A stretch of DNA of 64,000 bases from Perkinsus olseni. Its lineage: Eukaryota. The stretch's first letter is position 1, and each line of letters begins with the position of its first letter. The stretch covers positions 1 to 64,000 of the forward strand of contig JABANN010000064.1 in the NCBI GenBank assembly GCA_013115125.1. Reading direction: 5' to 3'. This document shows positions 1-32,771 of the stretch, one piece after another. The notes under the pieces are model-generated. The model saw nothing but the letters and a program-made list of their open reading frames with translations. It made no database searches and was not told the DNA's origin. The position numbers were made by a program, and so were the translations under genes.

Positions 1-721
1 GCTAGATATCTTTACACAGATATCCAGAGTAGCGCACGCCCGATCCTGTCTCTCACGGCCAGCATTCTACACAGCAGCCCACGCGCGTTTAAGGGGACGT
101 TTGCAGCGGGCTAGGAGCTGGCAGCGTTCAGTGGTGGACCATTCTGCATGGGCTGAGCCTGTAGACGTCGAGACACCATTTGATATAGATATACGTGCAT
201 AGTCCCCCGGGTGGAAACCGGTATGCCCTCCTTTTTGAGAATGGATCGGAGACAGAGGAAGTGTCCCGTGACGTGCTGCTCTTGTGCGTTGCGGCCATGC
301 TCGGTTCGCCGGATGTTCGCACCCCACGAAGATCTTCTGCTGATTCTGCCACCCGCCTGTAACCATCCGCCTTCGCGGCATTTTCTGCTAGAGCTTCTTC
401 TATCAGGGGCTACTCAGTTCTTTCACAGTCTCTCTGTCCTCACTGATTTCCCGTCCCACTTGGCATGATGAAGTGAAGCAACTGTTGCCCAGTTATCCTG
501 TATTCTGTCCGCCAAGATACGACAGTGATAGTGGCTCATCCCTTTCGTCTGCAGTTCTCTTTCAAGCTTCTTTCGAGTGTTCCCTCGCCAGATCCCGTCG
601 TTCCGTCCCGGCATCCACGCGATACCCGGTACCGGATGCCGAAACTACCGCGAGCATTGGTGATGCTGTTTCTAGGTATTCCCCCCAACCTGAGCTCAGC
701 TTCATCGCTCTCTTAGCTTCG

Positions 722-1140
722 ATGGACACCTGTGACATTTTTTCTTCATACCAGTGTAATGATCACGGTGTCTGTTGGCCGGCCAATGCCTACTATGATT
801 ATTATTACTGTATTTGCAATATATGGTGGACTGGAGACCAGTGCGACCGAAGATCCTGGTGGGCGCCCTGTGAGCGATGCCGTTGTAGACTTCAATTTGC
901 AGGTTCTTTTGGTTATGTATAGTCATCGGGATAGTGGTGACTCTCACACTGGCGTTTTTCGCTTGTTATTATTTCGTGAAATATAGAGGAGCAGGCGCCC
1001 CCTCGCGGAGGGATGCCCACCGTTCAGCAGATGACCACCCAATCACCTATGGGGTGAGTGAAGCTAGTCGCTGGCCCAAGCATAGTCTCCTTTTCTTGCC
1101 GAGCCTTGTGCAGGCGGTCGCTCTAAATTCTGAAGTTTAG
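722..1140 (+). CDS. Single-EGF-domain, single-TM micro-protein, copy 1 (~104 aa; exons 722-858, 903-1053, 1114-1140)
   Basis: MDTCDIFSSYQCNDHGVCWPANAYYDYYYCICNIWWTGDQC has EGF Cys spacing. Removing GT-AG intron 859-902 joins it in frame to the hydrophobic FFWLCIVIGIVVTLTLAFFACYYF followed by KYR. Confidence 0.8.
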
Positions 1141-2172
1141 AAAACTCTATGAGACCCAACACTTTGGCAGCACTGGTGAATGAGGACCTCCCACTCCTCC
1201 TTTGGTAGTGCGTAGACAAGGTCCCCCCAAATTTGTGCCTGATATGGCGATAACCGTGGGGAAGCCTGTCTCTTGAAACTGCCAGGCCTCCAACGACGGA
1301 TAGTCCCTTCATTAATGGCCAGTAGTCTCGGTGAATTGTCACCGGTTTATCTCAACAATACTTGCCGATTCGCCGTCATCACTTTTGCGCGCCTTTTTTC
1401 TAAGCTGAGTTGTTGTGCGTTGACTAGCCGTTTTTACTCGTATATCGACTGTGAACCTCAGTGAGTTCAAACCGCCGCTAGTCCTGTTCATCAGGCTTAA
1501 CGTAGCATACATTTCGCCGAGGGCACTGGTGATTTTCTAGATTTTGGTTCAAGCCTTGATGGTCTAGCGACCCGTGTGGCGGCCAGGAATGATGCCTGCT
1601 ACGGCAGCAGGTGCTCCTCGAGAGAGCTAAAGCAGCACGAGGGGAACCCTGCGATTTACGACTAAGAACGAGACGAGGTGTGTGCCGTGCCATAAACCCG
1701 AAAGACCATACCGCCACAACCGTCGTACCAGAGTTCCCAGCGAACATGACCCAATCGAGTGGGGACGAACGCACGAGGGGACCCTCAGCAAGGTCTTACC
1801 GTATCTTTGTCAATGGCAGTCGTTGAGCGTACAAGAACTCAGGTGAAATGATATGTCATCACGGTTGAAGGGAGAGAGGAGTGCGTGACGCCGCGTCACA
1901 CCATGAACGTTCTGTGCCGCACGGGTCCTTAGGCGGGCTCGGCCCACCTCCACGGAAGTAGACGCCGTCCACTAGACGACCCTGCTTCTCTCAGACTTTA
2001 GTTTGTATCCCTTCTCTCATTCTCCCCTTCCTTTTTCGCAAGTGCACTCCAACACCAGAGCTGGTACGGTACCAGTGGTACCTCATACATCGGCGGTGTC
2101 GCAGGCATTAGATTGGTCGTTCTCAGGTACCCTCCTAATTTGGCCCTGGCTGCATTATTTTTCTCAGTATTC

Positions 2173-2525
2173 ATGAGCATCTGTGACCTTTACTCTTCAT
2201 ACCAATGTAGTGGTCATGGTGTATGTTGGCCGGCCTACGAAGATAACCACTGTGTTTGTAACGTGTGGTGGGTTGGAGATCAGTGCGATGCGATATCCAG
2301 GTGACTCGAGGCGCCAAATGATCAGTTCACGCTGGTGTGGTATGAGCTTCTATTTTTAGCTACTATTGGTTATGTATTATTATTGCTATAGTGGTGTTCA
2401 TCAAACTAGCGCTTTTCGCTTGCTATTATTGGATGAAGTATAACCGAGCGGCGACGGCTGCCCCGTCGCAGAGGGTTCTCCACACCTCAGCAAATGGTTA
2501 CCCAGCCACCAACGGGGTGAGTTGA
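2173..2525 (+). CDS. Single-EGF-domain, single-TM micro-protein, copy 2 (intron 2301-2359; last exon uncertain)
   Basis: MSICDLYSSYQCSGHGVCWPAYEDNHCVCNVWWVGDQC, spliced to YYWLCIIIAIVVFIKLALFACYYWMKY. Intron position and phase match copy 1. Confidence 0.8.
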
Positions 2526-3653
2526 GCAGATTGCTATTTTAGACACATCTCTCGATCACTATAGCCATGGCGGCCGCTCTAGTAGGCTCGGATGCGTAGC
2601 ATTAATTCTTGCACCACAGGTGTATCAAAATTGAGAGTCTCTCAGCTGAGGATTCGTTACTGAACAGCTTCCAGCGATTGAGGTTCTCTCCCTGGGAGCA
2701 ATAGGTGTTCCTTAGGTAATACGCAGCCAGGTTGCGCCTAAAGCGGAGCATAACATGGCGGTGACCGTTGGAAAGCCGGTGTCCAAGAGCTGAGCAAATT
2801 TCGCCTCCCGAAGTTCCGATAATGAGCAGATTGTCGAGAATATTTCCATTTTTCGGCCAGTGGCCACGGTGATTCCTCGCCAGTCCACCGTAGCGGCACT
2901 CGCAGATTCACTTTCATCTCGCGATCCGCTATCTGGTTTCCCTCTTTCCTAAGCTGTTGTGTATCAATTGAATGTGCAGTTCACCTGCAGCCTGCTGGCC
3001 GGAAGCAGTTTGTCTCTGCGCACCTGCACTGGGTGACTCGAGTTTGCTGGTCGAGTTACCTCTGATGCATGATACTGGGCAATAGTATCCAACGGTTAGA
3101 TTAACAGCGACTCTCGCATATATACCATTCCTTCAACTTCGTATCACATCTCGACGCACTTCACTCAGCTGGTGTGTCTGCAAACCTGGTCCTCCGAGTA
3201 CTGTTCTCGCTTTTCTCGGCGAAGGTGCCCAGTTCTCGCCAAGTGAGGGATATCTTCGTTATTCCAACTTATTCCAATTACGGTTATCGACCTTGCTTAA
3301 TCAACCACCTTGCTCACGAGGACTCTTCTTCCTGGCTCGTGAAACGGGTAACATAAGCCGCGCCGCGTCACGCGCCACAAAATTATGAATGGCACTCAGA
3401 ACGGCTCCATGATTCGCGAGGCACCTCCCGGGTTGTACTCACCATGATACTTCATCGGTCTACTTATGCTTGTACAATTAGATGGAGCTGTGTCAAATCA
3501 GGCTCGTCAACGCATCATTCATAACGGTCAATCCACCTGCGACCGTCCATGCGACTGCTGATGCCAGAGTGATTCCCTCTTCCTGACGAGATGAGCCAAG
3601 GGAGCTCAGCGAGAAGTCTTTCGAAGTACTGAGCACGTTTGAGAACTTTCGCA

Positions 3654-3964
3654 GGAGCGAAGGATGATGAGACATCGCACTCAGCCGAGCTCAACTTGAA
3701 GTCCTTGATAGGCGTTTGCAAGTACGCAGGGTTCATCATTTTCAACTTGGTCGCCGTGTATTTCCTGGAGTACTTTATTCAATCTGGTTTTATGGATAGG
3801 GCTTCGATCAATGTGGATACAGTTCACTCCTCCTATGTTGCAGCTAACTCGTATGAGATGATGTTGATCGGGTATAACATTGGTGTCACCATCTCGAGGT
3901 CATCTGTCACCTTCTTCCGTATTAAGAGGGCTTGGATACCTACTGTCCTGCAAGCCTGTAACGC
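3654..3964 (+). pseudogene. Internal fragment duplicate of the CLN3/Btn1 gene at 17260-18597
   Basis: Near-identical to 17974-18284 (GAKDDETSHSAEL...PTVLQACNA). It has no N-terminus and diverges after ACNA. Confidence 0.9.
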
Positions 3965-4238
3965 TATCAAGCTTTCCTTATTAAATCTTCGCAGACAGCC
4001 CTACGAGATTCGGTGATTGACAGCCTGCTTGTGGTAGTAGGCGAAGGCCTGGCAGCCTAGTGATCTCCTTCTGGAACAGCATTGTCGTAGCATCGCCATC
4101 ATGTACTGTACATACCCTGTAAAATGCATCTCGTATCGTCGACTTGTGTTGTTATTCATTCAATTCTGAGTCAGACTTTGTGACTGGGGTATATGAACTC
4201 CTGTAGACCGTTGGTAGTGTTTAGAGGTTATTGACCCT

Positions 4239-7200
4239 ATGACCGCCGCTGCTGAGTCCACTGCTACTACTGAGCCGACTGCTCATGGCCTGTATGATAA
4301 CCTTCGGCGGCTCATTAACGTGGTGGATGAGCTGAGGTAATAGTGGGGTCATGCCTGTCGGTGTTGAGAGTGGTTTCAGGGATGTTGGACTACAGAAGAT
4401 CATCAACCTTCCTCGGATTGTTGTTGTCGGGACCCAGAGTTCAGGGAAGAGCTCGGTAAGGCATACGGGACAGGGCTCGTCCAGTATCCGCCTGACGGCT
4501 ATGTTGGAGCTGCTTATGGTTGGAGGCCTCTCTCAGGTTTTGGAGAGCATCGTTGGCCTCGATTTCCTCCCCCGTGGCGATGGTGTTGTAACGAGAAGGC
4601 CGCTCGAGCTTAGGCTGGTTCACTTGTCCGAAAGTGAGATGGGGAACCCAGCGTGTTGTGGGGTACAATGGCGGAGTTGCGTCAGGTGACCATAAGCCTG
4701 ATGATGCTTGGGCTGTATTCCCTGATCGCCCTGAGAAGAAGTTCACGGATTTCGATGAGGTAATAACAGCCGCGGTAGTGGTGAGAGGGATTCCACAAGT
4801 TGTTCTCACATTTATTCGCACAGCGCACATGAGTAGGAATAAACGATTATAACTCTCGTCTGTCGGCCGTAACGATGTGTATAAGGTACGTAAGGAGATC
4901 GAGCGGCTCACTGATGTTGCAGCGGGAGCCAACAAGGGTATCGTAGACGATCCTATCGTCATGACGATGTACGTGCCAGTGGTGTCTGCTTGGTGATCCG
5001 TGAGTTGGCCTTGAAGATACGCTACTGCTGCTCCTGACCTCACTTTGATTGATTTGCCTGGCATCACTCGAGTCCCTGTGAAGGGCTCTGATCAGAAGGA
5101 GGATATTGAGAAAGTCACTAAGGTGGGCGAAGAGGCCTTAGAAGGGGTGGTCCAATGATCGGTGGCAGGACATGACCTACCGGTACATTAGAGACCCTCG
5201 GACCATCATCTTGGCAGTACTGGCTGCAAACCAGGACCTGAGCACTAGTGACGCCCTGCAGATGGCTCGTCAGGTGGACCCTTCTGGGTTCAGAACCATT
5301 GGGGTAGTAAAGGCCTGAGAACGGGAATATGAGGTTGCACTGTACTCTGGGGTTGCTGTGGCAGGTGATAACGAAGATTGACATCATGGATAGGGGCACT
5401 GACGCGATCAAGATGCTTACTGGGGAGGATATACCCTTGCGCTTAGGATATGTTGGAGTGAAGAACAGGTAGTGTATTGGTAACGGTGGTCCTTGTTGGT
5501 GGACCTGTTGCTGTAGATCGCAGGCGGACATCCGTGCTAACATGAGGGTGAAGGAAGCTTTGCAGCAGGAGAAGGAGTGGTTCGAGAGCCACCCCAAGTA
5601 CAACAAGCTGCCTCCTGGTCTCACTGGCACTGGTAGTAGTAGGTTCCTCGGCTTGCCATGAGTCAGAGTCATCGACCATCGGGAGAAATATCTGGTGCAG
5701 GTTGCTTGGTACAGAAGCTCACGAGGGTGCTTTTCCGTCATATCCGTAACTTTTTGCCTGAGATCAAGAAGGAAATATCCGACCGGAAGACTAAGTAGAA
5801 CAACGCTGTTACTCATAATAAGAGGATCACTTCGTTATGGAGCAGAGTGCAAGATCGATTGGAGCAGATTGGCAGTGGTGTTCCGGTGGATGAGAAGGAG
5901 CAGGTCCAGCTTATGTGGACGATGATTACGGATTACTGTGATATGTTTAAGAATACTATCAGAGGTAGCACACTGCACTCGCCATGTGGGCATGCTTGAT
6001 GATGATGTGGTGGTGGTGGTGGCTGTCAGGGAGGAATGATAGGAAGCTGCAGCACTATCTGGCGGCCTCTGCCGAGAGCGGAGAGCAGCTTGCCTCGGGT
6101 GGTAGTCAGATAAGAAGTGTCTTCAATGACTTCCTGGTAGGTTCGGTCTCCTTGGCCGTTGTGTGGGGATTAGTCATCCATTCAGGCTGACTACGAGGAT
6201 GAGCCTTGCACCAGAGACCTCACAGATGAGGACATCGAGAGGGCCATCCGAGTTCACGAGGGGGATGCCCTGCCTGGTAGGCCGACCATTGGCTACGAAC
6301 AACCGGATTTACCTAGCGGTCACCTCGATCAGGATTCCCTTCCCCTGATATTTTTGAGTTCCTTATTTTGCCGTATCTTCGTCAAATTCAAGGCCCTACT
6401 ATGGAATGCTTAAACACCGTTGCAGCAACCCTGGAGGTAAGGGGAGGGTGGGTGTGTGATGGGGCCCTGATGAGGTCTCCCGCAGGTCCTCAGTCAGAAG
6501 ATGGCGCGTACAGTCTTCAAGCGCTTCCCCAAGCTGGCAGACCAGGTGGGCAAGGCTGAGGGGGATTTATGGCGTAGCGGTGGCTCAGGTCCTCGAGCTG
6601 ACCTCACAAATTCTGTATAGAGAAAAGGAGCATACTCGCGCCATACTCGAGGACCTAGTTGCCTATGATACGGGTTATCTGTTCACCAATGACGTGGATT
6701 ACCTAGAGAGCCACGGATCTATGCAGCCCATGTGAGTGGATTTGGCCGTCACTGCTGTTGTCTAGTAGTGGAGGGCAGGTACCAGCCTTCACCGGGACTA
6801 CCCAACGGACCTGATGGTAACGTCAATTCGCCCCCTGGCGGTGCTGCTGCTTCTGGAGTAGCGGGTCAGGCTGTGGCATCACAGCAGGTAGCGTCTCTGG
6901 CCTGTTACTGTTTGTGGATCTGGAAAAGCAGGTTCCCTCGAGAGGTATGCCTGGGCAGCGCCCCAATCATCGTCGGGGCTATGCGGGACCCTACGTCACG
7001 GAGATCCGTCGTCGCCTTGACGCCTACTTCTCCCTGATCATCAGGAATGTCCGGGACTCGGTTCCGCGGGCCGTCGGGTACTTCCTAGTTCGCCAGGTGA
7101 GAGTGCAGGACTGCTGGGGTTGGTCATCCACTCTCGTGGGGTAGGTGCAAGACAAACTCCAGTTCGAGCTATATACTAACGTGAATAGGGCAGAGAAGTT

Positions 7201-7802
7201 GCCCGAGCTGCTTGGAGAGCCACCGCATATTATGGAGGAGAGGAAACAGCTGACGACGCAGGTGAGGGCGATGGCCGCCCTGCTGGTAGTGGTCGGCTGA
7301 GGTGGTATTTGTTGTGGCAGTTGCGTATCCTGGAGAACGCTCATAACGTGCTGCAGCGTGATCCCACTATTACGGCACTGCAGTTGGAGACGATGGACAT
7401 GATGGGTGACGAGTCAATATCACCGGCCGCACCTCGGAAGCCTAGGAGCCCTAAGCACAGCAAGCAGCAGCAGCAGCAGCAGCAGCAGTATCCGGGCTAC
7501 AAGCCTGCTGGAGTGCCACCCCCTTCATCCCAGGTCCGACTATAACTTAACTTTGCTTCGCGTGGATGCAATTCTGTCAGGCCGGAGTTCCCCCGCCCTC
7601 TAACGGTTCGTCGGTCCCGCCGCCCGCTCCTCCACCGGGCGGTAGTCTGTTCGGCAATTCGACTTCGAAGGCTCACACCGGCAACACGGGTAGTATCCCC
7701 GCCGCCCATCCTGGCCAGGGCTCGTCTTTGTTCGGAGGGAGCAGCTATCAGAGTGGCAGGAGGACACAACCCCCGCACAACCCTCTTTTTCAAGATGACT
7801 GA
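4239..7802 (+). CDS. DrpB: Dynamin-related GTPase, alveolate DrpB/DYN1-like (multi-exon)
   Basis: [41 protein letters not shown] (G1), [28 protein letters not shown] (G3), VITKIDIMD (G4), GED-like [29 protein letters not shown], and a Pro/Gln-rich tail. Confidence 0.93.
7465..7488 (+). repeat. (CAG)8 microsatellite encoding polyQ in the dynamin tail
   Basis: Directly visible. Confidence 0.9.
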
Positions 7803-8020
7803 TGACTGTGCACTGGAACTCAACAGCAGCAGCCGCAGCAGCAGCAGCTATAGACCCAATACGAGTGTATTATCGCTGCCTAATCACCGTTGTTACTGCT
7901 GTGTACGATAGCAGGTCTATCCTGTGGTGCGTTCAGTTTGTTAATGTGGCGGGTGTCCTACTACTCGGGATCATAGTGTGTGTGGATTCGCGAGTCCAGG
8001 GTGATATTTGGGCGCCACTA

Positions 8021-10495
8021 ATGATCTCATCGGAGAATATCAGCCGGCCCCTCTACGGGACGCTGTTCGCATTCGCTGGAGATGAAAGCATGGCTGCCTG
8101 CTGGGGCTCGGTAGTGCGGGAGGCGCTGGTATTTCTCGTGGGACCGCTGTGCTATCCATAGCACGCGCCTTCTGTGATTTCCTGCTCTTCTTCGCTCCGC
8201 TGCGTCCCGTGTCAGGCCACGTCTGGAGTAGCACCAGTGGAGGGGCCACTCAGGTAGTACCATAGTAAACTTACGTAAAGTGGTGGTATGGGAGCCTGCC
8301 TACCTCTGGGATAGAATTTGCCGGAGATTCCCTCAATACCGGGCTCGTTCAGGACGGCAACCGAGTGCCGAGGAGATGGTTCAGTGATGCGAGTCCCTTC
8401 ATGTTGCGAGGCGATGCAGAGGAGCGGCGGCCGATGTAGGCTGCTGGGGCAACAAGGGGCAGCCGTCGATTCTCCGGGCTGTAGTATTGGAAGAGCGACC
8501 AATGCGGGCGGCTCTGGCCGGCCTGTGCTGTCATCATCCCATCGTCATGCAGATCGAGGTGGAGGGGGATCACGCTGGAGATGATCAGCTTACCAGAGAG
8601 GTACGTCCTCGCTTCGATCGCCTCGGAGTGTGGCCGTCCAGGAGCAGCAATTTTGGCTGGGACTATTGATCTTGGAGAGCGCTGCCTCCAGCATTGGCCG
8701 TGGCGCTATGACCTTCGACACGCAGGATCGGCCGTTGTTCAATATGGAGGAAGTTTCGACCAGTGGAAGATACTCGTCAAGTCGGGCTACCGTTGCCTTG
8801 TCCAGCTCGACAGGGCTCTCCATGGACTGGCCAGAATTCCATAACGGTGTGGCCTTTGGCCTAGCCGTGAGACCGCCGCGAGGGAGGAGGCCGGATAGGG
8901 AGTGGTTTGTCCGTAATATGCGCTGGAAGAGGGCTTCGGATGATTCCTGTTTTCGGAGGGCCGGTCTTCTGATGGGCCTAGGCCTGCACGGCTATATGAC
9001 ACCTGATGTCTTCCGTCCTGATGACTGGTTGGTGGAAATTGGCATGGGTAACTGCGCCTCGATATGCGCTGTGCTTCTGGGCGTCGGGGCTTCCAATATA
9101 GGATCGAGGGACCTCAAAGCCTGTAGACTGTGTTACCTTCATACTCCGGCCCTGTCAGGGCAGGTGGACCAGTCGGCAGGTAGTTCTACTCAAACCCTTG
9201 TGCAGTGCTGTGGCGTGGTCGCCTTGGGCTTACTGCACTACAAGTCCGCTCATGTTACGCTGGCCACCACTGTATTGAAGAACCTGCGTGACCTTGGTAG
9301 CATCACCGGCGGCTCGGACGAGTGTGGGGTCGGCCTTCGACCAGCCTATGGAGTGTCACTCGGAGTAGCCTTCGCTCTGGCATACGCTGACAAGCCCTTG
9401 CCTCGCAATTTGGAAGATGCGCTCATGGCGTGTACGAAGAATATCGATAGTTCTGTGCCGGCTTCCATCGCCTTGGGTCTTCTGTACTACGGCAGGGGCG
9501 ACTCCCGTGTTTTGGAGGTGCTGCAGTTGCCTCGTACCCGACATCAGCTCTGTCGTAGGAGGCCGAACTGTTGGTTTGCGGTTGCTGTGGCTCACACTAT
9601 GGTGCAAGGGGAATTGCCTGACCTGCCCTCCTTCGTCGGTGGATGCAGGGAGAAGTATAGAGCTACCGCAGGAGAGTCGAGTCCTTTCGTAGAGGCTGAG
9701 GCAGCACTGTATATGGAGGCGGGCTGCATGCTAGGCCTGGCGTTGTCCAATATGGGTAGCGATGATCTCGGGGTTCAAGATCGGATACTGGCTGCTCTGG
9801 AGAGGATGCTCAGGATGGAGAGCTGGCAGGTGGTAGCGATCCGATCGAATAGGACGAGCATTCCTAAGATTGGGCCAACAACGGTGGCTAGATCAAGCGT
9901 GATCTTCAGGAAGGCATGCCGAGTGTCACGTCCTTTGGAGCGATAACGAGCCATCCCCCGGATGACTGTGGACCCGACAGCAAGACCCTGCTTACTTGCA
10001 GGTAGTTGAGGGCTTCTTCATGCTCCCTTCTCGATCCCTCCTCAGGCTCAGCGTCTTGTTGTCAGCTGCGACTGTCATGGCCGGCAGCGGTTGTCCTCGT
10101 GTATCAGCCTTTATCGATCGAGTGCGGCAGAAGGTGCGGCTGCTACGTCCTCGATGAGGGCCATGAGTCAGAGTTTCAGGTTTTTGAGAGTACTCATACT
10201 CCAGCAGCAGAATTTGAGTCCGTCTATGGCATACACCAAGCACTCCATCTAGCCACTGGCCTGCTCCATCTGGGCTGGGGTCGCTGCAAGTTGAAGAACA
10301 ATACTCTCGGGAGGGCAGCCATGCTTCTAGCACTCTGGCCCGGCTACAGACATGACGTCAGCGATATGAAGTGGGCATCTACTACTCGGGGTTGCTGCCG
10401 TAGCGTGTATTGGGTGTATGGTGGCCCTCGGCAGATACCACGTCCAAGTGTTCCGACACTTGTACTGTCTAGCGGTTGAGAGAAGGGCCCGTTAG
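8021..10495 (+). CDS. APC1: Anaphase-promoting complex subunit 1 (PC-repeat core; start approximate)
   Basis: LAVQEQ...SIGRGAMTF, WPEFHNGVAFGL, AGLLMGLGLHG, HQALHLATGLLHLGWG, and YHVQVFRHLYCLAVE followed by TAG at 10493-10495. Confidence 0.82.
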
Positions 10496-10596
10496 TAGTA
10501 CTCCCTTTCCATAAGCATGGGCCATCTCCTCTCTTTGTACACTACTACAGTCACTACTATTTCCAACATCCTTCGCGAAGACTTGCGTGGCTGTTA

Positions 10597-13025
10597 TGTC
10601 TCGGATCATCCTTGCTACGTTCGCTGCCTGCATGGAATGCCTTCCTTGTTAGTCTTTGTATGCTGAGGGAGTCAACGCGGTGGTTTGATGAGAGTGATGG
10701 GACCAACACTCCTCAGCAGGCTCGGGCTCCTGCGACGGGGTTCGACCACGACAACCGCCCATCGATCGTTAGCATCCTCGACGAGCCCATCGGTTGTTCG
10801 AGGGGCTCACCAGAGGCGAGTGTACTCAGATGACCGTCGTGTATCGACAGGGTTGAGTATGACTAGTCTATAGGTGCGACGTTGCCATAATCGGGGGCGG
10901 CATCAGCGGCTGTTCTCTTGCCTGGGTTCTTGCCCGCTTCACTGACATGTGAGTTTACCAGTCGCCTTGCTGTTATTGAGGGTTCCTTTAGAAACTCCGT
11001 GGTCGTGTTGGAGCGGCATAATAACGTTGGCAGAGTATGCAGCCATGCAAAGAACAACTCGCAGACTCTGCATCGTGTAGGGGCATTACTCGCTGGGGTG
11101 GTGGTGAGGCATCAAAGGTGGTATTCTTGCAGTAGGGCGACGTCGAGACTAACTATAGTATACACAAGGCTCGTCGCGCCAACGCTCAAGCTGAGCTGCT
11201 CCGCCGCTTCACGAGTACTGTTTTAGAGGAGCCTGAAAGGGACAGCTGCGTATTCAGGATGGTAGCATTCGCACCCCGCCCTTCCGCGCTTCTGTTCTTC
11301 TCCACTGGAAGGAGGCTGTACAGTTTTGTATCATTTTTCTCAGTCTAAGCTGTGCCTTGGGGTTGGTGAGGAAGAGCAGGAGCTGCTCAGGCAGCGGTAC
11401 GAGTCCTTTCGTGAGGAATTCCCCTCGATGCGGTTCACGGAGAAGAAGTAGACAAGCCTCCTCCGAGAGCTGATCGCCTAGGTTCCTCATTTAGAGAGGA
11501 GATATTCCGGTTGGAACCGGCAGTAGTGCTCGAAGACCTTGATGGATCGAGCTTTAGATCCGAGCCGCTCGCAGCCATAGCGATAGAAGATGAGTGGGGT
11601 GTGTCTGGTAGTGGTAGCGTGATGAGTCTGATCAGATACGCCGCTGTTAACTACGGTGAGCTCACACACTCGTTCGTCCGCCATTCACGGAGGCACGCGT
11701 CGGAAACGGGAAAAAAGGTCGAGTTTATTACGTCAACGAAGGTAAAGTGGGAGCCGGATCCTGAAGACCCCTCGCGCTTCAGGTTGAGTCCCTCGCTCCG
11801 TATGATGACGGTGATGTTATGTTGCGGTGTTCAATGAACGACGTCGAGGTTCGGGCGAGATTCTGCGTCGTCTCAGCGGGCGGTTACTCGGTACTACCGT
11901 CGCAGCCGCTTCGCCCCGTCTCTCCTGCGAAGTTTTCATGTTTTTATGTGCGTCCTTGTAGTTGCTATTGGCCCACAGTCTCGGCCTCGCCAAGCATTTG
12001 TCACTCCTTCCCATCGCGGGTTCATTTTTTTTCGCAGGCTCATCGGGGGCCTACCGGAGACTGCTTAACGGCAAGGTGTAAGGTCCGCTACGACCGAGAG
12101 ATTGCTGCATTGACGCCATCAGGTACGCTGTCCAGGACCCCGCTCTACCGTTTGCTGCTCCCCATGCTGATCCAGATGTAGCCAAGCTTGGCCATCCAAC
12201 TCGGTAGTAGGGCTCTACTAGAGGCGACCATCAGCCTGCGTGATGGTACTGGGCCTGCCGTTGGTAGTTTCGGCCCAACAGCGGCGTTCCATCCGATGAT
12301 GGAGAGGTATCTTTTCGAGTCCCTACCGGATGCTCTGAGGACAATGCAGCTGACAGACCCAGCAACGATCGCCGCCCTTGCCGATATCCTAGCTGAGAGG
12401 CCGCACTTGATAGGATACGCTTTGGCGCAGATGACGTAGCCTAGTCACCGAGAGATCTTTCCCGCCCTCGTCGCTGCAGGTACGAGGCGCCGCTACTTGG
12501 TGAGCATCAATACGCTATGTAGGGGCACTCTCGTTATGGTCACTCTCACGTGCCCACTCCTCAGTAACGAGGCAGGTCGGTTAGTACCGGCCATTGCTCG
12601 AGGAAGAGTTCGATTATCGCCAGCATGGGGCTTTGGAGGGGTCCGTCCCCAATTGTTGGACACTTGGAAGAAGACACTTGTAGGAGATCTCGGTGCGTGG
12701 GGCTGCGTACGCTCACTGTCGTCAGCTGATGGGAGCTGGCAAGATAGTCGAGCCTGAGGTCCCGAATATGATCTTCAACATAACACCATCGCCTGGGGCG
12801 ACCGTCTGTTTGGCTAGCGCCTTGTCTGATGCGTTGAGGTGAGGATCTACGAAGCTCCTGTTGGTAGAGCTCTGTTTCGGACCACTGTTACCTCCGACGT
12901 TGTGGGCAACTCTGTCTGTCAGGATTTGCGATCATCTCGGCGCTGAATTTGACTATGAGGAGGTGATGAGACTACTGGCTGTGAACTTGCGTGATCCTTG
13001 TGTGGCTGAGCTCGTCCTTTCCTGA
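10597..13025 (+). CDS. MQO: Malate:quinone oxidoreductase-like FAD oxidoreductase (multi-exon; start approximate)
   Basis: DVAIIGGGISG FAD motif, SHAKNNSQTLH, GDVETNY, FGPTA, GFGGVRPQL, IFNITPSPGAT. Confidence 0.8.
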
Positions 13026-14196
13026 GAACACATGTGTTGACTAAGTCAACTTGGCTTCGAGAACCTTTTCGTTACCCTTGATCGACTTGTGTTTGATCGC
13101 ACCACTGCCTAGGATCTATTATAGGCAGCGCAGTTGACAGTGCCTTCCTCGTTAAGAACCTTCAATGGAACTCTCCCCTTTTATTTTCACTGATCAGACA
13201 GTTGAGCTTGATCGCTGATCATTGATCAGTATGATCCCCATCGCTTCTCGTAGACCTTTCCTCGTCGAATGCGGACCGTGGTATCGCTTTCTTCGGAGAA
13301 CAGGAGCTTCCGCTATTACCCCACGGAAGTGTTGCGTGTGTCAATGTCATCGTAAGCCTCGCCCTGGCTCATGGTGATGGGCAACCTGTGGTGGATACAC
13401 TCCTGGGCTGCCGCCATAGCGGGAGCTCTGGCATGACGCTACGGCCGATAAGAAGAGTTTCTTGTGATTCACGAGGATAGACAGGGTTCCCCTCATAGAG
13501 AGGCGAGATGAAGTCCGAGTATGGAGCAGAATAGTGATAGCAGGGAACAACGACACTCAGTGCATTATGGCAATCGCATCCAACACCTTGATAGTTCCCT
13601 TCCCGTACGCACACAAGTCCGCACGCAGGAGTGCAAAAGATCACAACTGTGAGTGGTCGTGGGTCCTCGGTGGGCTGCTACTATAACCTGCGAGATGTTA
13701 CATCTGAGGTGAACTTGCGAGGAGCTCCTGCCGGACACGAATGGGCCTTCCTCTCGGGAACAGGGATAAGGAAGAGAGACAATGAATAGCGTCACGCGTT
13801 ATGTCATGCGTGACGTGCAGCGCGTGCCGTGCGAGTGGCGCTTCGTGTGGTACATACTAACTTGGAACAAGAAGAGTTGGGAACTCCTGGCCGTTCCTAG
13901 CCTGCCTTTATCGCAGGGGCCCGTCGTTCTCCCTTGTCGATCAGTGGGCCTGCAGCAAGCATGTTGCCAACGTATTAGATGGTGATAGCGCTTAACCTTT
14001 GATTGTAAAAAGGCTGTCTCTCATAGAGATCTTTTCCCGAAACTTTCGCGGAAGTATCTAGCTATCGTTCCATCGTCTGTTATCCTGGGGAGGAGTTAGC
14101 CGCTGTCTGGTTGATGGAATCACCATTCGAGCTTTGACGGTGTCGTTCCAGTTTTTTACGTATCGTTGTTTTAGCGACAGCACTACCTCCGCCACC

Positions 14197-14710
14197 ATGA
14201 GCGCCTGCGACCCTCTCTCTCCCGACCAGTGTAACGGTCGTGGTGTGTGTGATCCTGGATTCGATGATATCCCCTCTTCCTGTGATTGCACTGTATGGTG
14301 GGATGGAGACCAATGCCAGAGGATATCTGGGTGAGCTGAATAGTGCAAGGGTCGACCTTGGATACTGGGTAGAACTCCTTAGGTACTATTGGCTCGTCAT
14401 AGTCCTTATTATAGTGGCTGTATTGAAGCTGACTTTCTTCGTGTTCTATTGTTGGTTCAAGTACCGCCGTGTTGCAGGCCATTCTCGTTCAAAGAGGATC
14501 GTACGTAGCCCAGCGTATGTACAGCCTGTGAGCAAGGGGGTAAGCCAGTCTGCTGCTTTCGGCAGAAGTCCCCGCTTACTGATGAGATGAGCCTCGCTTT
14601 CCAAAGCTCGACCCTCTGTGAGTCTCTCTCTCGTTATTTTTCAGGCGGTGCGTAGTCAACCTCCAGCTGGAGCGCAGTATGGCAGTTATACTGGAAAAGC
14701 CAGTGTGTAA
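14197..14710 (+). CDS. Single-EGF-domain, single-TM micro-protein, copy 3 (~118 aa; exons 14197-14330, 14383-14539, 14645-14710)
   Basis: GCCACCATG start; MSACDPLSPDQCNGRGVCDPGFDDIPSSCDCTVWWDGDQC spliced to YYWLVIVLIIVAVLKLTFFVFYCWFKYRR. Both intron positions match copy 1. Confidence 0.82.
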
Positions 14711-14913
14711 ATAGCAAGTATACCTCGACCGACCGAGGGAATTTTCTAATGTGGCCAGCCACCACACTGACGCCTTTTAAAGGCCCGCCGTCTTTCGCTA
14801 CCATCGTCGTCGATTCGGCACTCGAGTCGCTTTCTCGCCCCCCCCCCTCTGAGTTGAGCTTTTGCAAGGTAAATAGTTGGACTGATAATTCCCCTTTTGA
14901 TAGCGGCATTCTT

Positions 14914-16760
14914 ATGCCCAATGTACTTGAACGGCTTGCCACTGCCGGCTGTGAGTGATCGTAGACGTCCGGCACGGCAATGTGACGAAGCCAATTCCGA
15001 TGAGGCGAGTACGGTTGAACGGGTCGTGACCTTGGTGCATATAACGTTCTGCCTCGCTGTTGATCTCCAGTGTCCCACCTGGTCGAGATCTCCGAGCCAG
15101 CGAGCATGGCGATCGAACCGCATCTAGCATGTTCGAACCCATTGAAGATAGAGGGCCTTATACGCTGTTCTGAGCACTTTCCGAGTCGGTCCTGCTACAG
15201 TATTCGGGTTCAGCACAGATCGAGGAAGGTACAGTGAATGAAGAACCACCGAGTCGCGGAGCCACACCTTGTCGGTCTCTGCAAACTGTCAATGTGACCC
15301 CTTCCAGCAAATGTGATAATCTCGACGGACCTTGTCTCCGCCAGACTGATGCGAGATAGGTTATACAGAGTCCCTGTTACGGTATGTTAGTACAGACACT
15401 GTAGCAGAGCTAGTCCGATCAAACCAAGTCCGTAATGAAGACGCTATCTACCTCATCGACTGCCGATACCCGTGAGGAGGTCTGCCGAGTGAGCGAAGTT
15501 GGATTCGTTGCTTGATAGGTATGAGTATAACGGAGGCCACATTATGAGTGCTATCAACTTCCCTCCGTATGAACTGGACTCGCTGAAGGAGTTCGTGTTC
15601 AACGACCTAGCCAGCCGAGACCGGCGTCGGGCGATAATTATTCTCCATTGTGAATTCTCCCAGCTCAGAGCACCTGTGGCTACTGATGCCTTGAAGAAGT
15701 AACGTGAGAGGGGGCTGCTGATATGCTTCAGTCGTGCGCACGATAGGAAATGAGGTCCTTCGCAGGATCAGCATGTCCGTCAGGTGAAATTTCGAGAACA
15801 TTCGAGAGGGTTTCATTCGGTGCGGTTTTTTGATCTTTCATTCAGCTTGTGAGACCGTCAGTATGTCATACTGTTGTTGTTGTTGTGGGACATGCCAGGC
15901 ATTCCGCCCGGTACGGATGCTCGAGGCCGCTTGAGCTCTATGTGATGAAGGGGGGATACTGCGACTTCTTCCGCAAGTTCAAAGAGCTATGTGAGCCCCA
16001 GTCCTACACGGAGATGTAAGTCGTTCAACAGCTGCCTCCTTTTCCACGACTGCTCTCCACATCAGGCAAGGGACGATGGAAAATAATGACAGCAGCAATA
16101 ACGCTGACGTGAGGAGCCTCACGCTACGGTCGACTGCGGTCGCTTGAAAAGTGTCACAGCGCCTGATGATCGCTTCGCCTCGTTGTCAGGACTTACCAGG
16201 GTTGCTACCAGGGGGCTTAAGAGGCTCACCACCTGCTCACATGCGGGGTCGGCAGCGACGGCGGCGGAAGGTAGTGGAAGTGTAGCCGAGTTTACTAGTG
16301 AGTGGTTCTGCAGCAGGTCAGAGGGCGCTGCTTTGATGACATGGATCTGTCATTCCGGGGTGAGGGCTCGTCTTGTGGACGACGGTATCGCTCAGTCCGC
16401 GTGTTCCAGACTCCCGCCGGAGGTCCTCTCGACTCTCCTCCTCATCCTGGGGCACCACGATGGACGAACGAGAATCGCCGATCAGGTAAGGGTAGGATTA
16501 TTTAGGAGATCTCGGCTGAGTTGTGAGCGAGGTTGCTATCCGATGAGCTCATCTGGGTGCGGCCAAGTATCCACGGCAGGGAGAGCGCTGTAGCTGGCTG
16601 GTGTCCTGAGGATGCATGCGGCAATCATGCAAGCGCAGCAGTATCATCAGTAGTGGTACCTGCGAGACTCTCCGTCAGTCGTCTTCACCTTCCACCTCAG
16701 ACGGCCTTCGCGTCAACCGGATTTGGATACGGGACAGGCAGATCCTCCGTGAGCAGTGAG
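14914..16760 (+). CDS. CDC25: Cdc25-like (rhodanese-fold) phosphatase; ends approximate
   Basis: [36 protein letters not shown] (CX5R), [23 protein letters not shown]. Confidence 0.8.
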
Positions 16761-17259
16761 TGATTAGTTCCGTACGGGCCCCCTTATCACCGCCGTCACC
16801 TCCCCCCCCCTGTATCGAGGGAAGAACTAGAAGAACTTCCAGCCCTGGCTCAGGTGTATCAATGGACGGTACCTGCGTGTCTGATGATGATGATTGAAGA
16901 GGATAGGCGGCAACGTAACATGTATAGTGCAATGAATAGTACAATTCACGTTCAATGCCCCGTATGAAGCAAATTTCTGCACTATAGGTTAGTCTGTTGT
17001 TGAGGCTGTTTGTTGCTCACTAACATCTCGGAGGAAAACACTGAGACTTGCGTTTGACACAGGGACGATGTCTTCATCGACAGCCGAAGGCAGAAGCAGG
17101 AAGGCTGATCATCATTTTCAGGGCGTGCGCTTTTTGCATTTCTTACAACGCTATCGTCCTCGTTTGTTCATCTAGCGTTAGTTCCATTGCGTTGCTCTCC
17201 TCATACGTACGACCATCGCTGACGAATAGGTTTTTTACCCCCTTCTTGCCTCTTCCTTC

Positions 17260-18597
17260 ATGTCCAAAAGAAGTGATAGATCTTCCGAAGAATTGCAGAC
17301 GTTGGAACCCGACGCGTCGGATTCTTCTGTAACGGAAGCAGACAAAGACGCCGTCAGCAAAGTTCCCGCTGCCACTGCGGCCGAGCAGATGGTCCGCAAA
17401 ACTTATGTGTTTTGCTTCGTCTGCACTACAGTGTGCGGGTTTATCAACAATACTGGCTACAACTTCGTCTTTACAGTTTCCCAAGATCTGGCTAAACAAT
17501 TCCATCATGAAGATGCTATGTCTTCATTCAGTATGGTCTTGTTGGCTGCTTGTTTCGGCATGACGATATTGCACTCTAAGTTCTTTCTGCACTTTCCATT
17601 TTTGGTGAGAATCGCGGCCTGTTTAGTCCTCCAGACGTTTGCGTATGTTCTTCTTGCGATTGCCTGTAAGATGACTAATGACAATATCGGTTTTGGCCTG
17701 TCATTGGCTGGAGCAGTCTGCACTGGCTTCTCTCAAGCACTAGGTGAAGTGCTCAACTTGAGTCAGCTGCATCACTTACCACCAAGCTTGGTCGGTGGCT
17801 GGGGCCTTGGTACGGGTCTTTCTGGTATCTTCGCTCCTCTCATTTACATGCTCTTCCTCAATGTCTTCCATTGGTCAAGGTTTGTCATCATGTTGGTGAT
17901 GAACATACTGACACCTATTTACTTTGGCGCATTCTTCTACATCAATCGTCAAGCTAACAAGAGGACCGTTAAGGGAGCGAAGGATGATGAGACGTCGCAC
18001 TCAGCCGAGCTCAACTTGAAGTCCTTGATAGGCGTTTGCAAGTACGCAGGGTTCATCATTTTCAACTTGGTCGCCGTGTATTTCCTGGAGTACTTTATTC
18101 AATCTGGTTTTATGGATAGGGCTTCGATCAATGTGGATACAGTTCACTCCTCCTATGTTGCAGCTAACTCGTATGAGATGATGTTGATCGGGTATAACAT
18201 TGGTGTCACCATCTCGAGGTCATCTGTCACCTTCTTCCGTATCAAGCGGGTTTGGATACCTACTGTCCTGCAAGCCTGTAACGCCATCTTTTGGGGCTTT
18301 GAGGCTACTACCCACTTCATCAGGAATGGTCTTGGTTTGACCGGTTTCTATCTCTATATACCCTTAGCTGCCATTATTGGTCTGATGGGCGGATTGTCTT
18401 ACGTCAATTGTATGTACCAGATTCAGCAAAATGAGGACATCCCCACCGATCTTCGACAGCTGGCGGTTAACCTATGTTTTGCCTCGTCTAACATTGGTAT
18501 TGTACTGGCAAGTGGTTTGGACTTGTGGCTTGCCAATACAGCCTTGAGTCAATGCAACATCTACGATTGCAGTAAACCACCGCAGATTTACAATTGA
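17260..18597 (+). CDS. CLN3: CLN3/Btn1 (battenin) family lysosomal membrane protein, intronless, 445 aa
   Basis: NNTGYNFVFTVSQDL, GWGLGTGLSG, VYFLEYFIQSG, YNIGVTISRSS, GLMGGLSYVN; multiple TM segments. Confidence 0.9.
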   Translation: MSKRSDRSSEELQTLEPDASDSSVTEADKDAVSKVPAATAAEQMVRKTYVFCFVCTTVCGFINNTGYNFVFTVSQDLAKQFHHEDAMSSFSMVLLAACFGMTILHSKFFLHFPFLVRIAACLVLQTFAYVLLAIACKMTNDNIGFGLSLAGAVCTGFSQALGEVLNLSQLHHLPPSLVGGWGLGTGLSGIFAPLIYMLFLNVFHWSRFVIMLVMNILTPIYFGAFFYINRQANKRTVKGAKDDETSHSAELNLKSLIGVCKYAGFIIFNLVAVYFLEYFIQSGFMDRASINVDTVHSSYVAANSYEMMLIGYNIGVTISRSSVTFFRIKRVWIPTVLQACNAIFWGFEATTHFIRNGLGLTGFYLYIPLAAIIGLMGGLSYVNCMYQIQQNEDIPTDLRQLAVNLCFASSNIGIVLASGLDLWLANTALSQCNIYDCSKPPQIYN

Positions 18598-27012: not shown

Positions 27013-28380
27013 TCACGAATCGAATATAACTCCATATGCACGGATGCCGTTCTTTTCGAGACCCCGCGTAACCTCTCGAGTAGCCTTCATATTAGAAATG
27101 AATACCACAGCTTCGAAGCTTCCATGTTCCCACAGATTCCTCGCCACTTGGACTAGATCCGGACGACCCAACTTCTGTGTGTCGTGGATGATGGCCGTGG
27201 GGTCCATTCTCCGGATGGTAGTCATGATCGCTGAGCCGTAGGTCTCCAAAGGTGCTCGAGCGGACCATACGATCTTCACTGGGTGGCTTGGCTGTTCTAC
27301 GAAGAGACTTAGACAAGGCCCTATACCAGAGCCAGTGGCCATGACTATACATGGCCTGAAGAGCTTCACCACTCGAACCGTCCCGAACTGTGGAAGTCCT
27401 CGCGTCCAGATCCTACTCGGCGGGTTATCAATAATTCGGCCTGACCAGTCCCCCGCGCGAGAGATAATGATAGAGAAACCTTTCTGATCCACATGCCAGA
27501 CCTTCTTCTCTTCCTCGCTCAGGCCCGCAATGGAGCTTCGAATATTCGGTATCACCGCAAATGCATGCGTCTCGCGCAGAGGTGAGTCAGTGACTCGAAT
27601 AGCCTGTCCGAATGATACAATTCTATGTCCAAAGTTGAGGACGAGCGCGTGGGAGGAGAGTCGCCGGCACTCAACCACACGCTTCCTCAGATGTAACCAG
27701 GGAAAAATAACAAAACCGGTGATGAGAGAGACCTCCCACACACGGACATCAGAAAGAAAAAGTTTCCAGAAATTCGAATGGGACAGTAAAGCATCTTCTC
27801 TAACTGCCAGCATGAGCTGCATCCAGAATATCAAGAGAAGTGCCCAGGCACAGTAGCGATGCACGCGTTCGAAACAGTTGTGGTGCAGCCTGCGCATAAA
27901 TGGCAGGGCGAAGAGTATGATCAAGACCATTGAAGAGAGTACGAAACACGAGCTCAAGATGCGCATGCTAGTAGCACTATCCTTCTGGTACAGTTTGATG
28001 ATGAGGGCAACGTACCAAATCAGCGCTGCCGAAGCAGAGGCCCTGTGGATGGCTCCATAATAACAATAAACTCGTCCGAATTGTCTTCTTATCGACAGCG
28101 GGAGGTGAGTAGACTTATCGACGAATAGCACGAAGAGCGAGTTAACGAAATACTCATTTCTCGTTACGACTGTGGGTAGCAGGTACGTCGTGACCGCTAC
28201 CGAACTTGTGTAGACACCAGGCTGCAGAAATATTTCTACCAGAGCGAAGATCAAAATGTTCAGAACAGCTACGGGGAAGAAAACTCTGCGAAATGGCGTG
28301 AAGTGCCCCTTCATGGCGCGCGGTTTACGAGAAGGATGGAGGGGCATGCGGGAAATGGTACCTGAAATAATATGTGGCAA
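27013..28380 (-). CDS. TmpA-like membrane flavoprotein (ferric-reductase-like TM region + FAD/NAD(P)-binding domain), intronless copy A; ATG start probably ~28347
   Basis: ~6 TM segments, HHNCFERVHRYCAW, ETHAFAVIP, AGDWSGRII, MATGSGIGPCLS, VVFISN, C-terminal AYGVIFDS. Confidence 0.8.
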   Translation of the reverse strand: MPHIISGTISRMPLHPSRKPRAMKGHFTPFRRVFFPVAVLNILIFALVEIFLQPGVYTSSVAVTTYLLPTVVTRNEYFVNSLFVLFVDKSTHLPLSIRRQFGRVYCYYGAIHRASASAALIWYVALIIKLYQKDSATSMRILSSCFVLSSMVLIILFALPFMRRLHHNCFERVHRYCAWALLLIFWMQLMLAVREDALLSHSNFWKLFLSDVRVWEVSLITGFVIFPWLHLRKRVVECRRLSSHALVLNFGHRIVSFGQAIRVTDSPLRETHAFAVIPNIRSSIAGLSEEEKKVWHVDQKGFSIIISRAGDWSGRIIDNPPSRIWTRGLPQFGTVRVVKLFRPCIVMATGSGIGPCLSLFVEQPSHPVKIVWSARAPLETYGSAIMTTIRRMDPTAIIHDTQKLGRPDLVQVARNLWEHGSFEAVVFISNMKATREVTRGLEKNGIRAYGVIFDS

Positions 28381-29204
28381 TCTCCTTGAAAAAGTGTGGA
28401 CGCTTCATTTAGAACGACGCTATCCTGTGACTGAGACTCTGAACGGTTCACTTTGCTTTAGTGCGGATTGGTCATTGGCGTAGGGTCCAATGCGTTGAAC
28501 ACCCGGGCTCATGGGGAGCACGGGAGGGAGATAGAAAAATGGCGCGACCTACAGCGTTCAACGCGACGCTCATGTATGCGCGCAAGTGATCGACCAAACA
28601 AGGACGTCCGACGAATCAAAAGCTTTTTGATCTCACGGTACGCAGCAGTCGGTGTAGGATACCGTGAGCGCCCTCGTTCGTAGCAGTGTCGAATCCTGGT
28701 GTCCCACTCAACGTGGGCCACGCTGACAGGCCGCTGTAAGATCGAGCTGCTATCATACGACTGCAACTTTTGCATGGACTTCTCAACTTCATTCTCCTTA
28801 AGCAGCGAATCGCTGTGTGATAGAAGGATGATCCTTCAAGGAACTCCCTGCCCCGGGTGGACAGCCTTTGTAACTATGGCAGCTCAATAGCTCGCCACAT
28901 TGTTATGTGTAGATCGACTCCCTTTGACCATCATCATTAGATACCCATGGGCTGTTGTGCAGCACAGGGCAGTAAAAGTTGTGCAGCCTGTGCGAAGTAG
29001 ACAGTAATTGACGGGCGCCAAAGACTTGAGCGTAGCCGATATGTATATGCGTCAAATGATCGGTTTCAGTTAGAATCGTTCAAGGCATATTGTTGATACT
29101 CCTGGCAACCTCGTTGGGCGCAACTCGAGTATTATCTTGTATATGTATTGGGCCTTTAGGATTGTGTTACCAGAGTTATTATCATCGACTACCTAAAGTA
29201 TCAA

Positions 29205-32334: not shown

Positions 32335-32771
32335 GCCGATAATGGTGATTCAAAACTCCTGAGAGAGGCTCATCGTGTCTAGTGTTACAACCCACTCAGT
32401 GTGATCCTGACCTGAACTTCAATTGAGCGTGCCCGCGTTCACGCTCCGTCGTCGGCGCTAGCGTCGGGAGGGTGACGGGCTCCACTATTCTTGGAAACCA
32501 TGAAACGGCAGGTTCATAGCAGCGTCGAACCTGAGCTTCATGGCCCGAGTCGGGTCACCTGACGATTCCTTCTTGTGAGTTTTCACGAATCCCTATCCAG
32601 TTACGCGCAACAGTGGCCCTATCAAGGCGTCATGGATCGTGGTGCGGGCATCATACGAATTCCAACGAACATGTGTTACGCTCCGTCGGTTTTAAGCATG
32701 TAGAGTAGCCCCAGCATTAGCTTTATTTAATATTTGGCCTTGCGTTTCGCGTGTGAGGAAGAATGCTACTA

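Follow-up and report, generated by a model that had tools for sequence, protein, structure and literature searches.

How can a protein whose first EGF cysteine is its fourth residue, and whose only hydrophobic segment lies behind the cysteine-rich module, come to display that module at a membrane? The question is raised by a 64,000-nucleotide (nt) stretch of Perkinsus olseni DNA (GenBank assembly GCA_013115125.1, contig JABANN010000064.1, positions 1 to 64,000 of the forward strand; referred to throughout as the window), in which three paralogous genes with start codons at 722 (gene 1), 2173 (gene 2) and 14197 (gene 3) were identified on the plus strand. The three genes are real and spliced and are found in RNA-derived contigs. 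The reading proposed here, which is considered reasonably probable as a whole, is that their leader-capped mRNAs encode N-out proteins with one EGF module and one transmembrane (TM) helix, in which the helix would serve as a reverse signal-anchor and the module would lie almost flush with the membrane.

Sequence features and constraint of the gene family

In all three genes the open reading frame (ORF) starts with M-x-x-C, i.e. with the first EGF cysteine at residue 4, and each protein runs from Met-x-x through a six-cysteine EGF module and a hydrophobic helix of 25 residues to KY[R/N] and a basic tail. The cysteines of genes 1/2/3 are spaced as C-x7-C-x5-C-x11/x8/x10-C-x-C-x8-C, with an invariant WWxGDQC inside the module. 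Five to six residues separate the last EGF cysteine from the hydrophobic stretch, which opens with [FY][FY]WL in the helix exon, extends over 25 residues and is followed by KY[R/N]. The products of genes 1, 2 and 3 comprise 98, 120 and 117 amino acids (aa), respectively, the last value including the predicted third exon of gene 3. A six-frame scan of the whole 64-kb window detected WWxGDxC at these three sites only, and the EGF_1-type pattern CxCx5Gx2C at the three family sites and in one unrelated minus-strand match (51899-51934).

The positions and phases of the introns are common to the family, with a phase-2 intron after the EGF exon and a phase-0 intron after the TM exon. The initial annotation of this locus had described three genes that emerge only after splicing, each encoding an EGF module and a TM helix, and the ORFs, together with the joints of genes 1 and 2 in RNA contigs, bear this out. 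Its statement that the introns are conserved holds for their positions and phases, but gene 1 makes no use of its homologous third exon, and length variation is not confined to the loop between the third and fourth cysteines, as had been supposed: the tail carries a two-residue indel and the last exons differ.

Amino-acid identity among the three products was 44-59%, with the six cysteines and WWxGDQC invariant across the alignment. The ratio of nonsynonymous to synonymous substitution rates (dN/dS) was calculated by the Nei-Gojobori method and amounted to 0.38, 0.20 and 0.24 for the three paralog pairs (dS 0.67 to 2.2). Given these ratios of 0.20-0.38 and the identity among the paralogs, the genes are therefore constrained coding sequences and not chance ORFs, and all three are under purifying selection.

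Structure of the transcripts

Parts of the region 300-2700 of the window were found in 24 public runs from 15 studies by a run search. Four of these runs (X1, X20, X2 and X11), all consisting of assembled contigs, were compared with positions 1-15000. Their contigs were taken as cDNA because GT..AG introns are missing from them and adapter plus leader letters are attached; contig depth figures indicate presence only and give no expression ranking. The joints reported below are the best 15 of 50. They include five GT..AG introns of genes 1 and 2, which supplies the transcript-level check of 5' ends and introns that the initial annotation had called for, together with leader acceptors for genes 2 and 3. 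All features described in this section are located on the plus strand.

Gene 2 gave the most complete structure. Its leader acceptor (AG 1993-94) and 5' untranslated region (5'UTR) exon (1995-2063) occupy 1993-2063, and in X1 adapter letters plus CTTGGCTCA stand before 1993. A 63-nt 5'UTR intron (2064-2126; joint in two of the four runs, X1 and X20) is followed by the exon with the start codon at 2173 and the EGF module (2127-2300; ORF and RNA contigs), a 59-nt phase-2 intron (2301-2359; joint in all four runs), an exon that encodes a Lys-containing TM helix followed by KYNR and the tail (2360-2516; RNA contigs), and a 199-nt phase-0 intron (2517-2715; again all four runs). The last exon (2716-2942) contains 25 codons, the stop codon at 2791-2793 and the 3'UTR, with contigs ending in adapter at 2942/2943. 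The third coding exon is thus 2716-2793, which corrects the initial annotation; a first guess near 2568 was ruled out by the joint 2516->2716. A 120-aa protein from another P. olseni assembly (P0030) has the same Met start and the same three coding exons as gene 2 and is 86-90% identical to it.

Gene 1 begins with a 5'UTR exon (411-628; the X20 contig starts at 411 and the X1 contig ends near 554), followed by a 47-nt GT..AG 5'UTR intron that contains an ATG at 636 (629-675; joint in two of four runs, X1 and X20), the exon with the start codon at 722 and the entire EGF module (676-858; ORF and RNA contigs), a 44-nt phase-2 intron (859-902; joint in X1, X20 and X2, i.e. three of four runs), and the exon for the TM helix, KYR and the basic juxtamembrane tail (903-1053; RNA contigs). 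Alignment revealed a homologue of the family's third coding exon at 1205-1273, in which the frame is open but TG replaces the acceptor AG that genes 2 and 3 have; none of the best 15 of 50 joints leads to it. Instead, the last donor of gene 1 is joined to the acceptor of gene 2, skipping 1054-2126 (two of four runs, X1 and X20, with a short side of only 29-30 letters). Across this joint (1053->2127) the ORF of gene 1 closes three codons on, within 2127-2138, and an earlier guess for its third exon (near 1110) was discarded on the strength of the same joint. The gene 1 contig of X2 runs past 1053 into 29 letters that are absent from the window and whose translation is similar to the first part of the tail exon of the family, which hints at a further paralog or a haplotype with an intact tail.

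The acceptor of the gene 2 5'UTR intron, at 2127, was thus also seen to take the last donor of gene 1, so that one RNA spans both genes. In gene 3, the spliced leader is attached directly at the homologous acceptor (14150-51). Cis- or trans-splicing can thus make use of acceptors close to the start codon in these tandem genes. Leader acceptors of tandem genes that are used for cis-splicing from the upstream gene are a warning for the annotation of Perkinsus genomes.

For gene 3, the leader acceptor (AG 14150-51), a 45-nt 5'UTR without ATG, the start codon at 14197 and the EGF module lie within 14150-14330, and X1 and X20 carry the leader letters before 14150. The following 52-nt phase-2 intron (14331-14382, GTGAGC..TTAG) was assigned from its splice signals, by homology and from its use in a public gene model (P0003, see below), and the exon at 14383-14539, which encodes KYRR and a strongly basic tail behind a Lys-containing TM helix, from the sequence. 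A phase-0 intron (14540-14644, GTAAGC..TTCAG) is predicted on the grounds that the next exon is homologous to the last exon of gene 2. By the same homology, the last coding exon is predicted to comprise 21 codons and a stop codon (14645-14710), which replaces the third exon of the initial annotation.

The public model that overlaps gene 3 proposes a different continuation. P0003, a 347-aa P. olseni protein named 'cell division cycle 25', contains gene 3 only as its first 70 residues, and in a tblastn comparison it was 100% identical to the window over these residues and over the exons in 15383-16760. If the model were real, gene 3 would be the N-terminal part of a receptor-like Cdc25/rhodanese phosphatase, i.e. 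an EGF-TM-phosphatase, with a donor past the TM helix joined near 15387, and a GTACCG donor is indeed present at the proposed join point. The intron required would, however, measure about 930 nt, as opposed to the mostly <100 nt indicated for Perkinsus in parts of PMC3101222. Moreover, the exon frame is open upstream of the proposed acceptor, and the Cdc25-like gene may have 5' exons of its own at 14900-15380. The KYRR tail is still present in gene 3, as is a homologue of the last exon of gene 2, X1 contig depth continues across 14501-15000, and the joint between genes 1 and 2 demonstrates that acceptors of a neighbour are used and can mislead gene callers. P0003 (14197-14458 plus 15383-16760, about 930 nt apart) is probably a chimeric gene call, and a true fusion of gene 3 to the phosphatase is very unlikely.

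Spliced-leader 5' ends and the absence of a signal-peptide exon

Adapter plus CTTGGCTCA remnants were found directly before 1993 (X1), 7998 (X20 and X11) and 14150 (X1 and X20), and those at 1993 and 14150 coincide with a genomic AG (AG 1993-94 and AG 14150-51). According to passages of PMC9399869 and PMC3101222, the Perkinsus spliced leader ends in the CTTGGCTCA letters, with TCTT where dinoflagellates carry TTTT, and Perkinsus introns are mostly <100 bp; the leader sequence given in PMC9399869 contains no ATG. Since the remnants match the published end of the Perkinsus leader, positions 1993, 7998 and 14150 are therefore spliced-leader acceptors.

The mRNA of gene 3 accordingly consists of the leader, 45 nt (14152-14196) and the start codon, with no other ATG. 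That of gene 2 consists of the leader, 1995-2063 and 2127 onward; its 115-nt 5'UTR contains no ATG before 2173 and, in the leader-capped form, has an in-frame stop at the second codon. In-frame stops are present upstream of the ATG in both gene 1 and gene 2. The contigs of gene 1 extend back to 411 (X20), where the only upstream ATGs (465 and 468) belong to a three-codon upstream ORF, with no later in-frame ATG. The X1 contig that ends near 554 adjoins AG 553-554, which is homologous to the leader acceptor of gene 2, and from this we infer that the leader is added to gene 1 at AG 553-554. With their 5' ends defined by the leader and no ATG upstream, there is therefore no room for a signal-peptide exon, and its absence from these mRNAs is well supported. 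The initial annotation was right in assigning no signal peptide to these proteins, as no ATG stands between leader and start codon, and its reservation that the genes might be the 3' exons of larger proteins with signal peptides finds no support in the RNA contigs. An early candidate for such an exon in gene 1 (ATG 636, spliced as 676-716) was rejected: ATG 636 lies inside the intron 629-675, and 674-675 is an acceptor rather than a donor.

A second public model bears on the same point. P0029, a P. olseni protein of 128 aa, is identical to gene 2 over the shared part but has a 29-residue N-terminal extension, which is derived from 1013-1053 (the TM exon of gene 1, in another frame) and 2127-2172 (the 5'UTR of gene 2). 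If genes 1 and 2 used an upstream start in this manner, the hydrophobic in-frame stretch before the Met would constitute a cleavable leader peptide. The extension does carry an 11-residue hydrophobic run, the joint 1053->2127 on which it depends is seen in two of the four runs, and the sequence ahead of the Met of genes 1 and 2 translates in frame into a hydrophobic stretch. Against this, the start codon of P0029 lies within the ORF of gene 1 on a chimeric RNA, behind several earlier ATGs, whereas the leader-capped gene 2 mRNA (from 1995) offers no ATG before 2173 and has its in-frame stop at the second codon. In addition, the translation of the 45-nt UTR of gene 3 is non-hydrophobic, the regions before the Met of genes 1 and 2 can be aligned only with 1-nt indels and are thus not conserved as coding sequence, and P0030 begins at the Met. 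The signal-peptide-like extension created through the 1053->2127 joint looks spurious, its translation is unlikely, and a cleavable signal peptide on these proteins is highly improbable.

Identity of the cysteine-rich module

The assignment of a single EGF module, made initially from the cysteine pattern, was supported by Pfam and ESM-Atlas matches. The spacing C-x(4-7)-C-x(4-5)-C-x(8-13)-C-x-C-x8-C of EGF modules, with a Gly three residues before the last Cys, is found in genes 1-3 and in P0002/P0030. In each of the three genes, EGF_Teneurin (PF23106) was the top-ranked Pfam model (E 3.5e-5 for gene 2, 0.0028 and 0.0026 for genes 1 and 3); gene 2 scored 24.2 bits at a gathering cut-off of 24.3, and genes 1 and 3 scored 18.1 and 18.3 bits. 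EGF_2 (PF07974) ranked second, with 20.6 bits for gene 2 and 13.9 and 16.0 bits for genes 1 and 3 at a cut-off of 22.1 (E 6e-4 to 0.07). In the ESM-Atlas, the module of gene 2 was placed within EGF clusters (score 0.94, 183 shared features). A profile of the three modules gave 14 matches with E up to 1 among PDB sequences; the best eight were EGF or EGF/TGF-alpha chimeras, although at E 0.038-0.15 and 15-17 bits they are not significant. Together, these matches support the module as EGF-like and as a member of the broad EGF-like class.

The domains ranked highest by Pfam, those of the teneurin/tenascin type (PF23106, PF07974), share with the Perkinsus modules the six cysteines and the C-x-C-x5-G-x2-C end. 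They usually occur as multi-module arrays within large proteins that have a signal peptide and are either secreted or of type I, whereas the Perkinsus proteins carry a single module at the extreme N-terminus.

Predicted topology and mode of action

The first 25 residues of the three proteins are non-hydrophobic (maximum 8-residue Kyte-Doolittle (KD) mean 0.41-0.79), whereas the helix reaches a KD mean of 2.65-2.86. Over the 15 flanking residues, the net charge in genes 1/2/3 is 0/-2/-1 on the N-terminal side and +4/+3/+6 on the C-terminal side. All three proteins thus have a single helix with a more positive C-terminal flank, and with leader-defined 5' ends, no upstream ATG and a non-hydrophobic N-terminus, no cleavable signal peptide on the mRNA. 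These traits, together with a short N-terminal ectodomain, are those of type III (N-out signal-anchor) proteins, which constitute a topology class and not a family. A small mammalian example is TEMP, described as a protein of 111 aa in part of PMC3901140.

The positive-inside rule is well established, and a single-pass type III topology (N-out/C-in) is predicted as probable because the charge bias follows this rule and the conservation of six cysteines is meaningful only if the module faces an oxidising compartment. The N-out signal-anchor assignment of the initial annotation fits this bias, but as a topology it stays a prediction. As no cleavable signal peptide is present, the sole hydrophobic segment is therefore most likely a reverse signal-anchor. 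To our knowledge, type III proteins have not been described in Perkinsus before.

On this prediction, the perkinsid spliced leader would cap each mRNA, and translation would start at the first AUG, three residues ahead of the first EGF cysteine. The 25-residue helix would then serve as a reverse signal-anchor: the module at the N-terminus, about 45 residues long and unable to form disulfides in the cytosol, would cross the membrane of the endoplasmic reticulum, while the basic flank rich in KY[R/N] would be kept in the cytosol (type III, N-out/C-in). In the lumen, the EGF module would form its three disulfides, and in the mature protein this single module would lie almost level with the membrane. 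With only five to six residues between the last Cys and the helix, the module is therefore expected at the membrane surface and shedding is unlikely; lacking a stalk for release, the protein would serve as a membrane-bound recognition or adhesion piece and not as a released factor. Two details of the helix offer further hints. A Lys lies in its core in genes 2 and 3 and in P0002/P0030 (Thr in gene 1), which in genes 2 and 3 may point to pairing with a partner membrane protein, and a Cys four to six residues before KY, near the cytosolic end of the helix, might be palmitoylated.

Several observations weigh against this reading. Only X11 is on record as RNA, the other three runs being RNA by guess, and neither the introns of gene 3 nor the addition of the leader to gene 1 are among the best 15 of 50 joints. 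In genes 1 and 2, the hydrophobic in-frame translation of the 46 nt that precede the ATG leaves a small opening for an upstream non-AUG start. No Pfam EGF model reached its gathering score for any of the three genes, and AlphaFold2, applied to the EGF exon with an alignment of three sequences, returned a predicted local distance difference test (pLDDT) value of 57 and one beta-hairpin (17-20, 27-30). Gene 1, having lost the acceptor of its tail exon, may be decaying.

Part of this evidence is shared by the alternative that the genes are transcribed lineage-specific ORFs without a stable or functional protein, or that the helix is inserted N-in, leaving a cytosolic, non-EGF cysteine-rich part. 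The poor structure model, the decay of the gene 1 tail exon and the finding of no relatives outside P. olseni among annotated proteins would all suit it. It is at odds, however, with dN/dS values of 0.20-0.38 and the retention of all six cysteines over a dS of 0.7 to >1.6, with the preservation of the same features in the 86-90% identical copy of another assembly, and with the charge bias in favour of N-out, and it is regarded as unlikely.

If the N-out signal-anchor reading is true, P. olseni possesses very small proteins of the cell surface or of endomembranes, with an ectodomain made up entirely of a single EGF module that is kept close to the membrane. Their insertion would need no signal peptide and would follow a route that has hardly been studied in alveolates, and they would be simple test cases for the N-out insertion of a disulfide-rich domain. 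In a parasite that causes commercial damage in bivalves, they would also be candidates for a part in recognition or adhesion.

Comparison with growth-factor ligands and parasite EGF proteins

The closest known layout is that of pro-neuregulin-4 (NRG4), a vertebrate protein of about 115 aa in which a single EGF module, beginning a few residues behind the Met, is followed by one TM helix and a short tail in the cytoplasm. As stated in parts of PMC8064692, NRG4 has no N-terminal signal peptide, carries its EGF module next to the membrane within the shortest ectodomain among the EGF/NRG ligands, and contains a serine-rich stalk with a cleavage site between module and helix. The Perkinsus proteins have only five to six residues in place of this stalk and hence no segment for shedding. 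The likeness is one of architecture: no direct comparison with the NRG4 sequence was made and no significant sequence similarity was shown. In this architectural sense, the description of the proteins as a stripped-down membrane-tethered growth factor proved apt, pro-neuregulin-4 having the same layout and likewise no signal peptide.

The initial annotation had gone further and raised host mimicry. In its specific form, the proteins would be mimics of host ErbB ligands, i.e. neuregulin-4-like tethered EGF modules that engage, in juxtacrine fashion, a bivalve EGF-receptor-type or other EGF-binding receptor on haemocytes, at uptake or in the phagosome. The cysteine spacing (x7, x5, x8-11, x1, x8) is that of EGF-receptor ligands, and EGF or EGF/TGF-alpha chimeras make up the eight best PDB sequence matches. 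Among ESM features, full-length P0030 fell near tomoregulin-1-like (0.87) and pro-neuregulin-4 (0.83) clusters, but Atlas scores <0.9 are to be taken as leads only. The best PDB match (E 0.038, 17.1 bits) likewise indicates no significant similarity to the ErbB ligands EGF, TGF-alpha or NRG, and the top Pfam rank goes to a teneurin-type EGF. In ErbB ligands the sixth Cys is preceded by a key Arg that contacts the receptor, whereas the Perkinsus modules have an invariant Gln (GDQC) at this position, and the module-helix gap of five to six residues provides no stalk for release or reach. Because significant similarity is lacking, Gln replaces the key Arg and there is no stalk, membership in the ErbB-ligand family is not supported.

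We know of no ErbB receptor that perkinsid alveolates have of their own. The proteins resemble a minimal membrane-tethered EGF protein, but nothing beyond the cysteine spacing and non-significant EGF matches (E 0.04-0.15) speaks for growth-factor mimicry, and engagement of a host receptor is highly improbable. Were it true, a protist would either have invented the minimal ErbB-ligand layout independently or have acquired it.

Other alveolate parasites possess proteins with one or few EGF modules at the membrane, such as apicomplexan MSP4/5 and MIC6/8. These have signal peptides and glycosylphosphatidylinositol (GPI) anchors, or larger ectodomains, and no sequence relation to apicomplexan EGF proteins was apparent among the 11 sequences inspected of the 27 profile matches described below.

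Family range and public annotation

Searches for further family members were performed at the level of proteins and of DNA. With HMMER, the module profile produced 27 matches at E <= 0.001 among 1.84 billion representatives. Only two of them, P0002 and P0003, have the module at residue 1, and nine of the other 25 were inspected and proved to be multi-EGF proteins or fragments thereof (e.g. P0004). A word-index profile search with all exons returned only P0030 and P0002 among 367 candidates, and a word-index protein search with the EGF exon of gene 1 against longer proteins gave no match. In a metagenome scan, one of 108 pattern stretches passed tblastn (L001), but this ORF is poor in cysteines, contains WWTGDQC by chance and is no relative. 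In these profile searches, which covered annotated proteins and no eukaryote DNA collection, no relatives were found outside P. olseni. Among annotated proteins the family is thus seen only in P. olseni and appears lineage-restricted. A search of the literature on Perkinsus EGF-like proteins retrieved no paper on such proteins by title or start of the abstract.

That standard annotation could miss these genes had been anticipated. This applies to gene 1, which was not found among the public proteins searched, and to gene 3, which is present only within the Cdc25-like chimera, but not to gene 2, which is included in public sets as 'hypothetical protein / EGF-like domain-containing protein' (P0029, P0030/P0002). 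At least one public model at the locus is chimeric (P0029), and probably a second (P0003). The full identity of these two P. olseni proteins to the window over the shared parts assigns the DNA to P. olseni or to a nearly identical strain.

Neighbouring features in the window

The spliced-leader remnant at 7998 (X20 and X11) presumably marks the 5' end of a plus-strand gene with a 453-codon frame (8585-9946), which had no Pfam match. The other long frames of the window are eukaryotic (CLN3, ferric reductase-like and MFS). They comprise a CLN3 match (17230-18597, E 1.4e-42), two tandem ferric-reductase-like TM domains on the minus strand that remain below the cut-off (27013-28404 and 31024-32349) and an MFS transporter (59977-61011); a cyclin fragment is located at 54343-55137. 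In all four runs, contigs of 1.3-2.1 kb match the window only from about 3654 to 3968/4067, after which 100-255 unlike letters follow. These contigs show three fixed differences from the window (3923, 3927 and 3931), and the segment 3654-4067 is either shared with a transcript from elsewhere or reflects an assembly difference.

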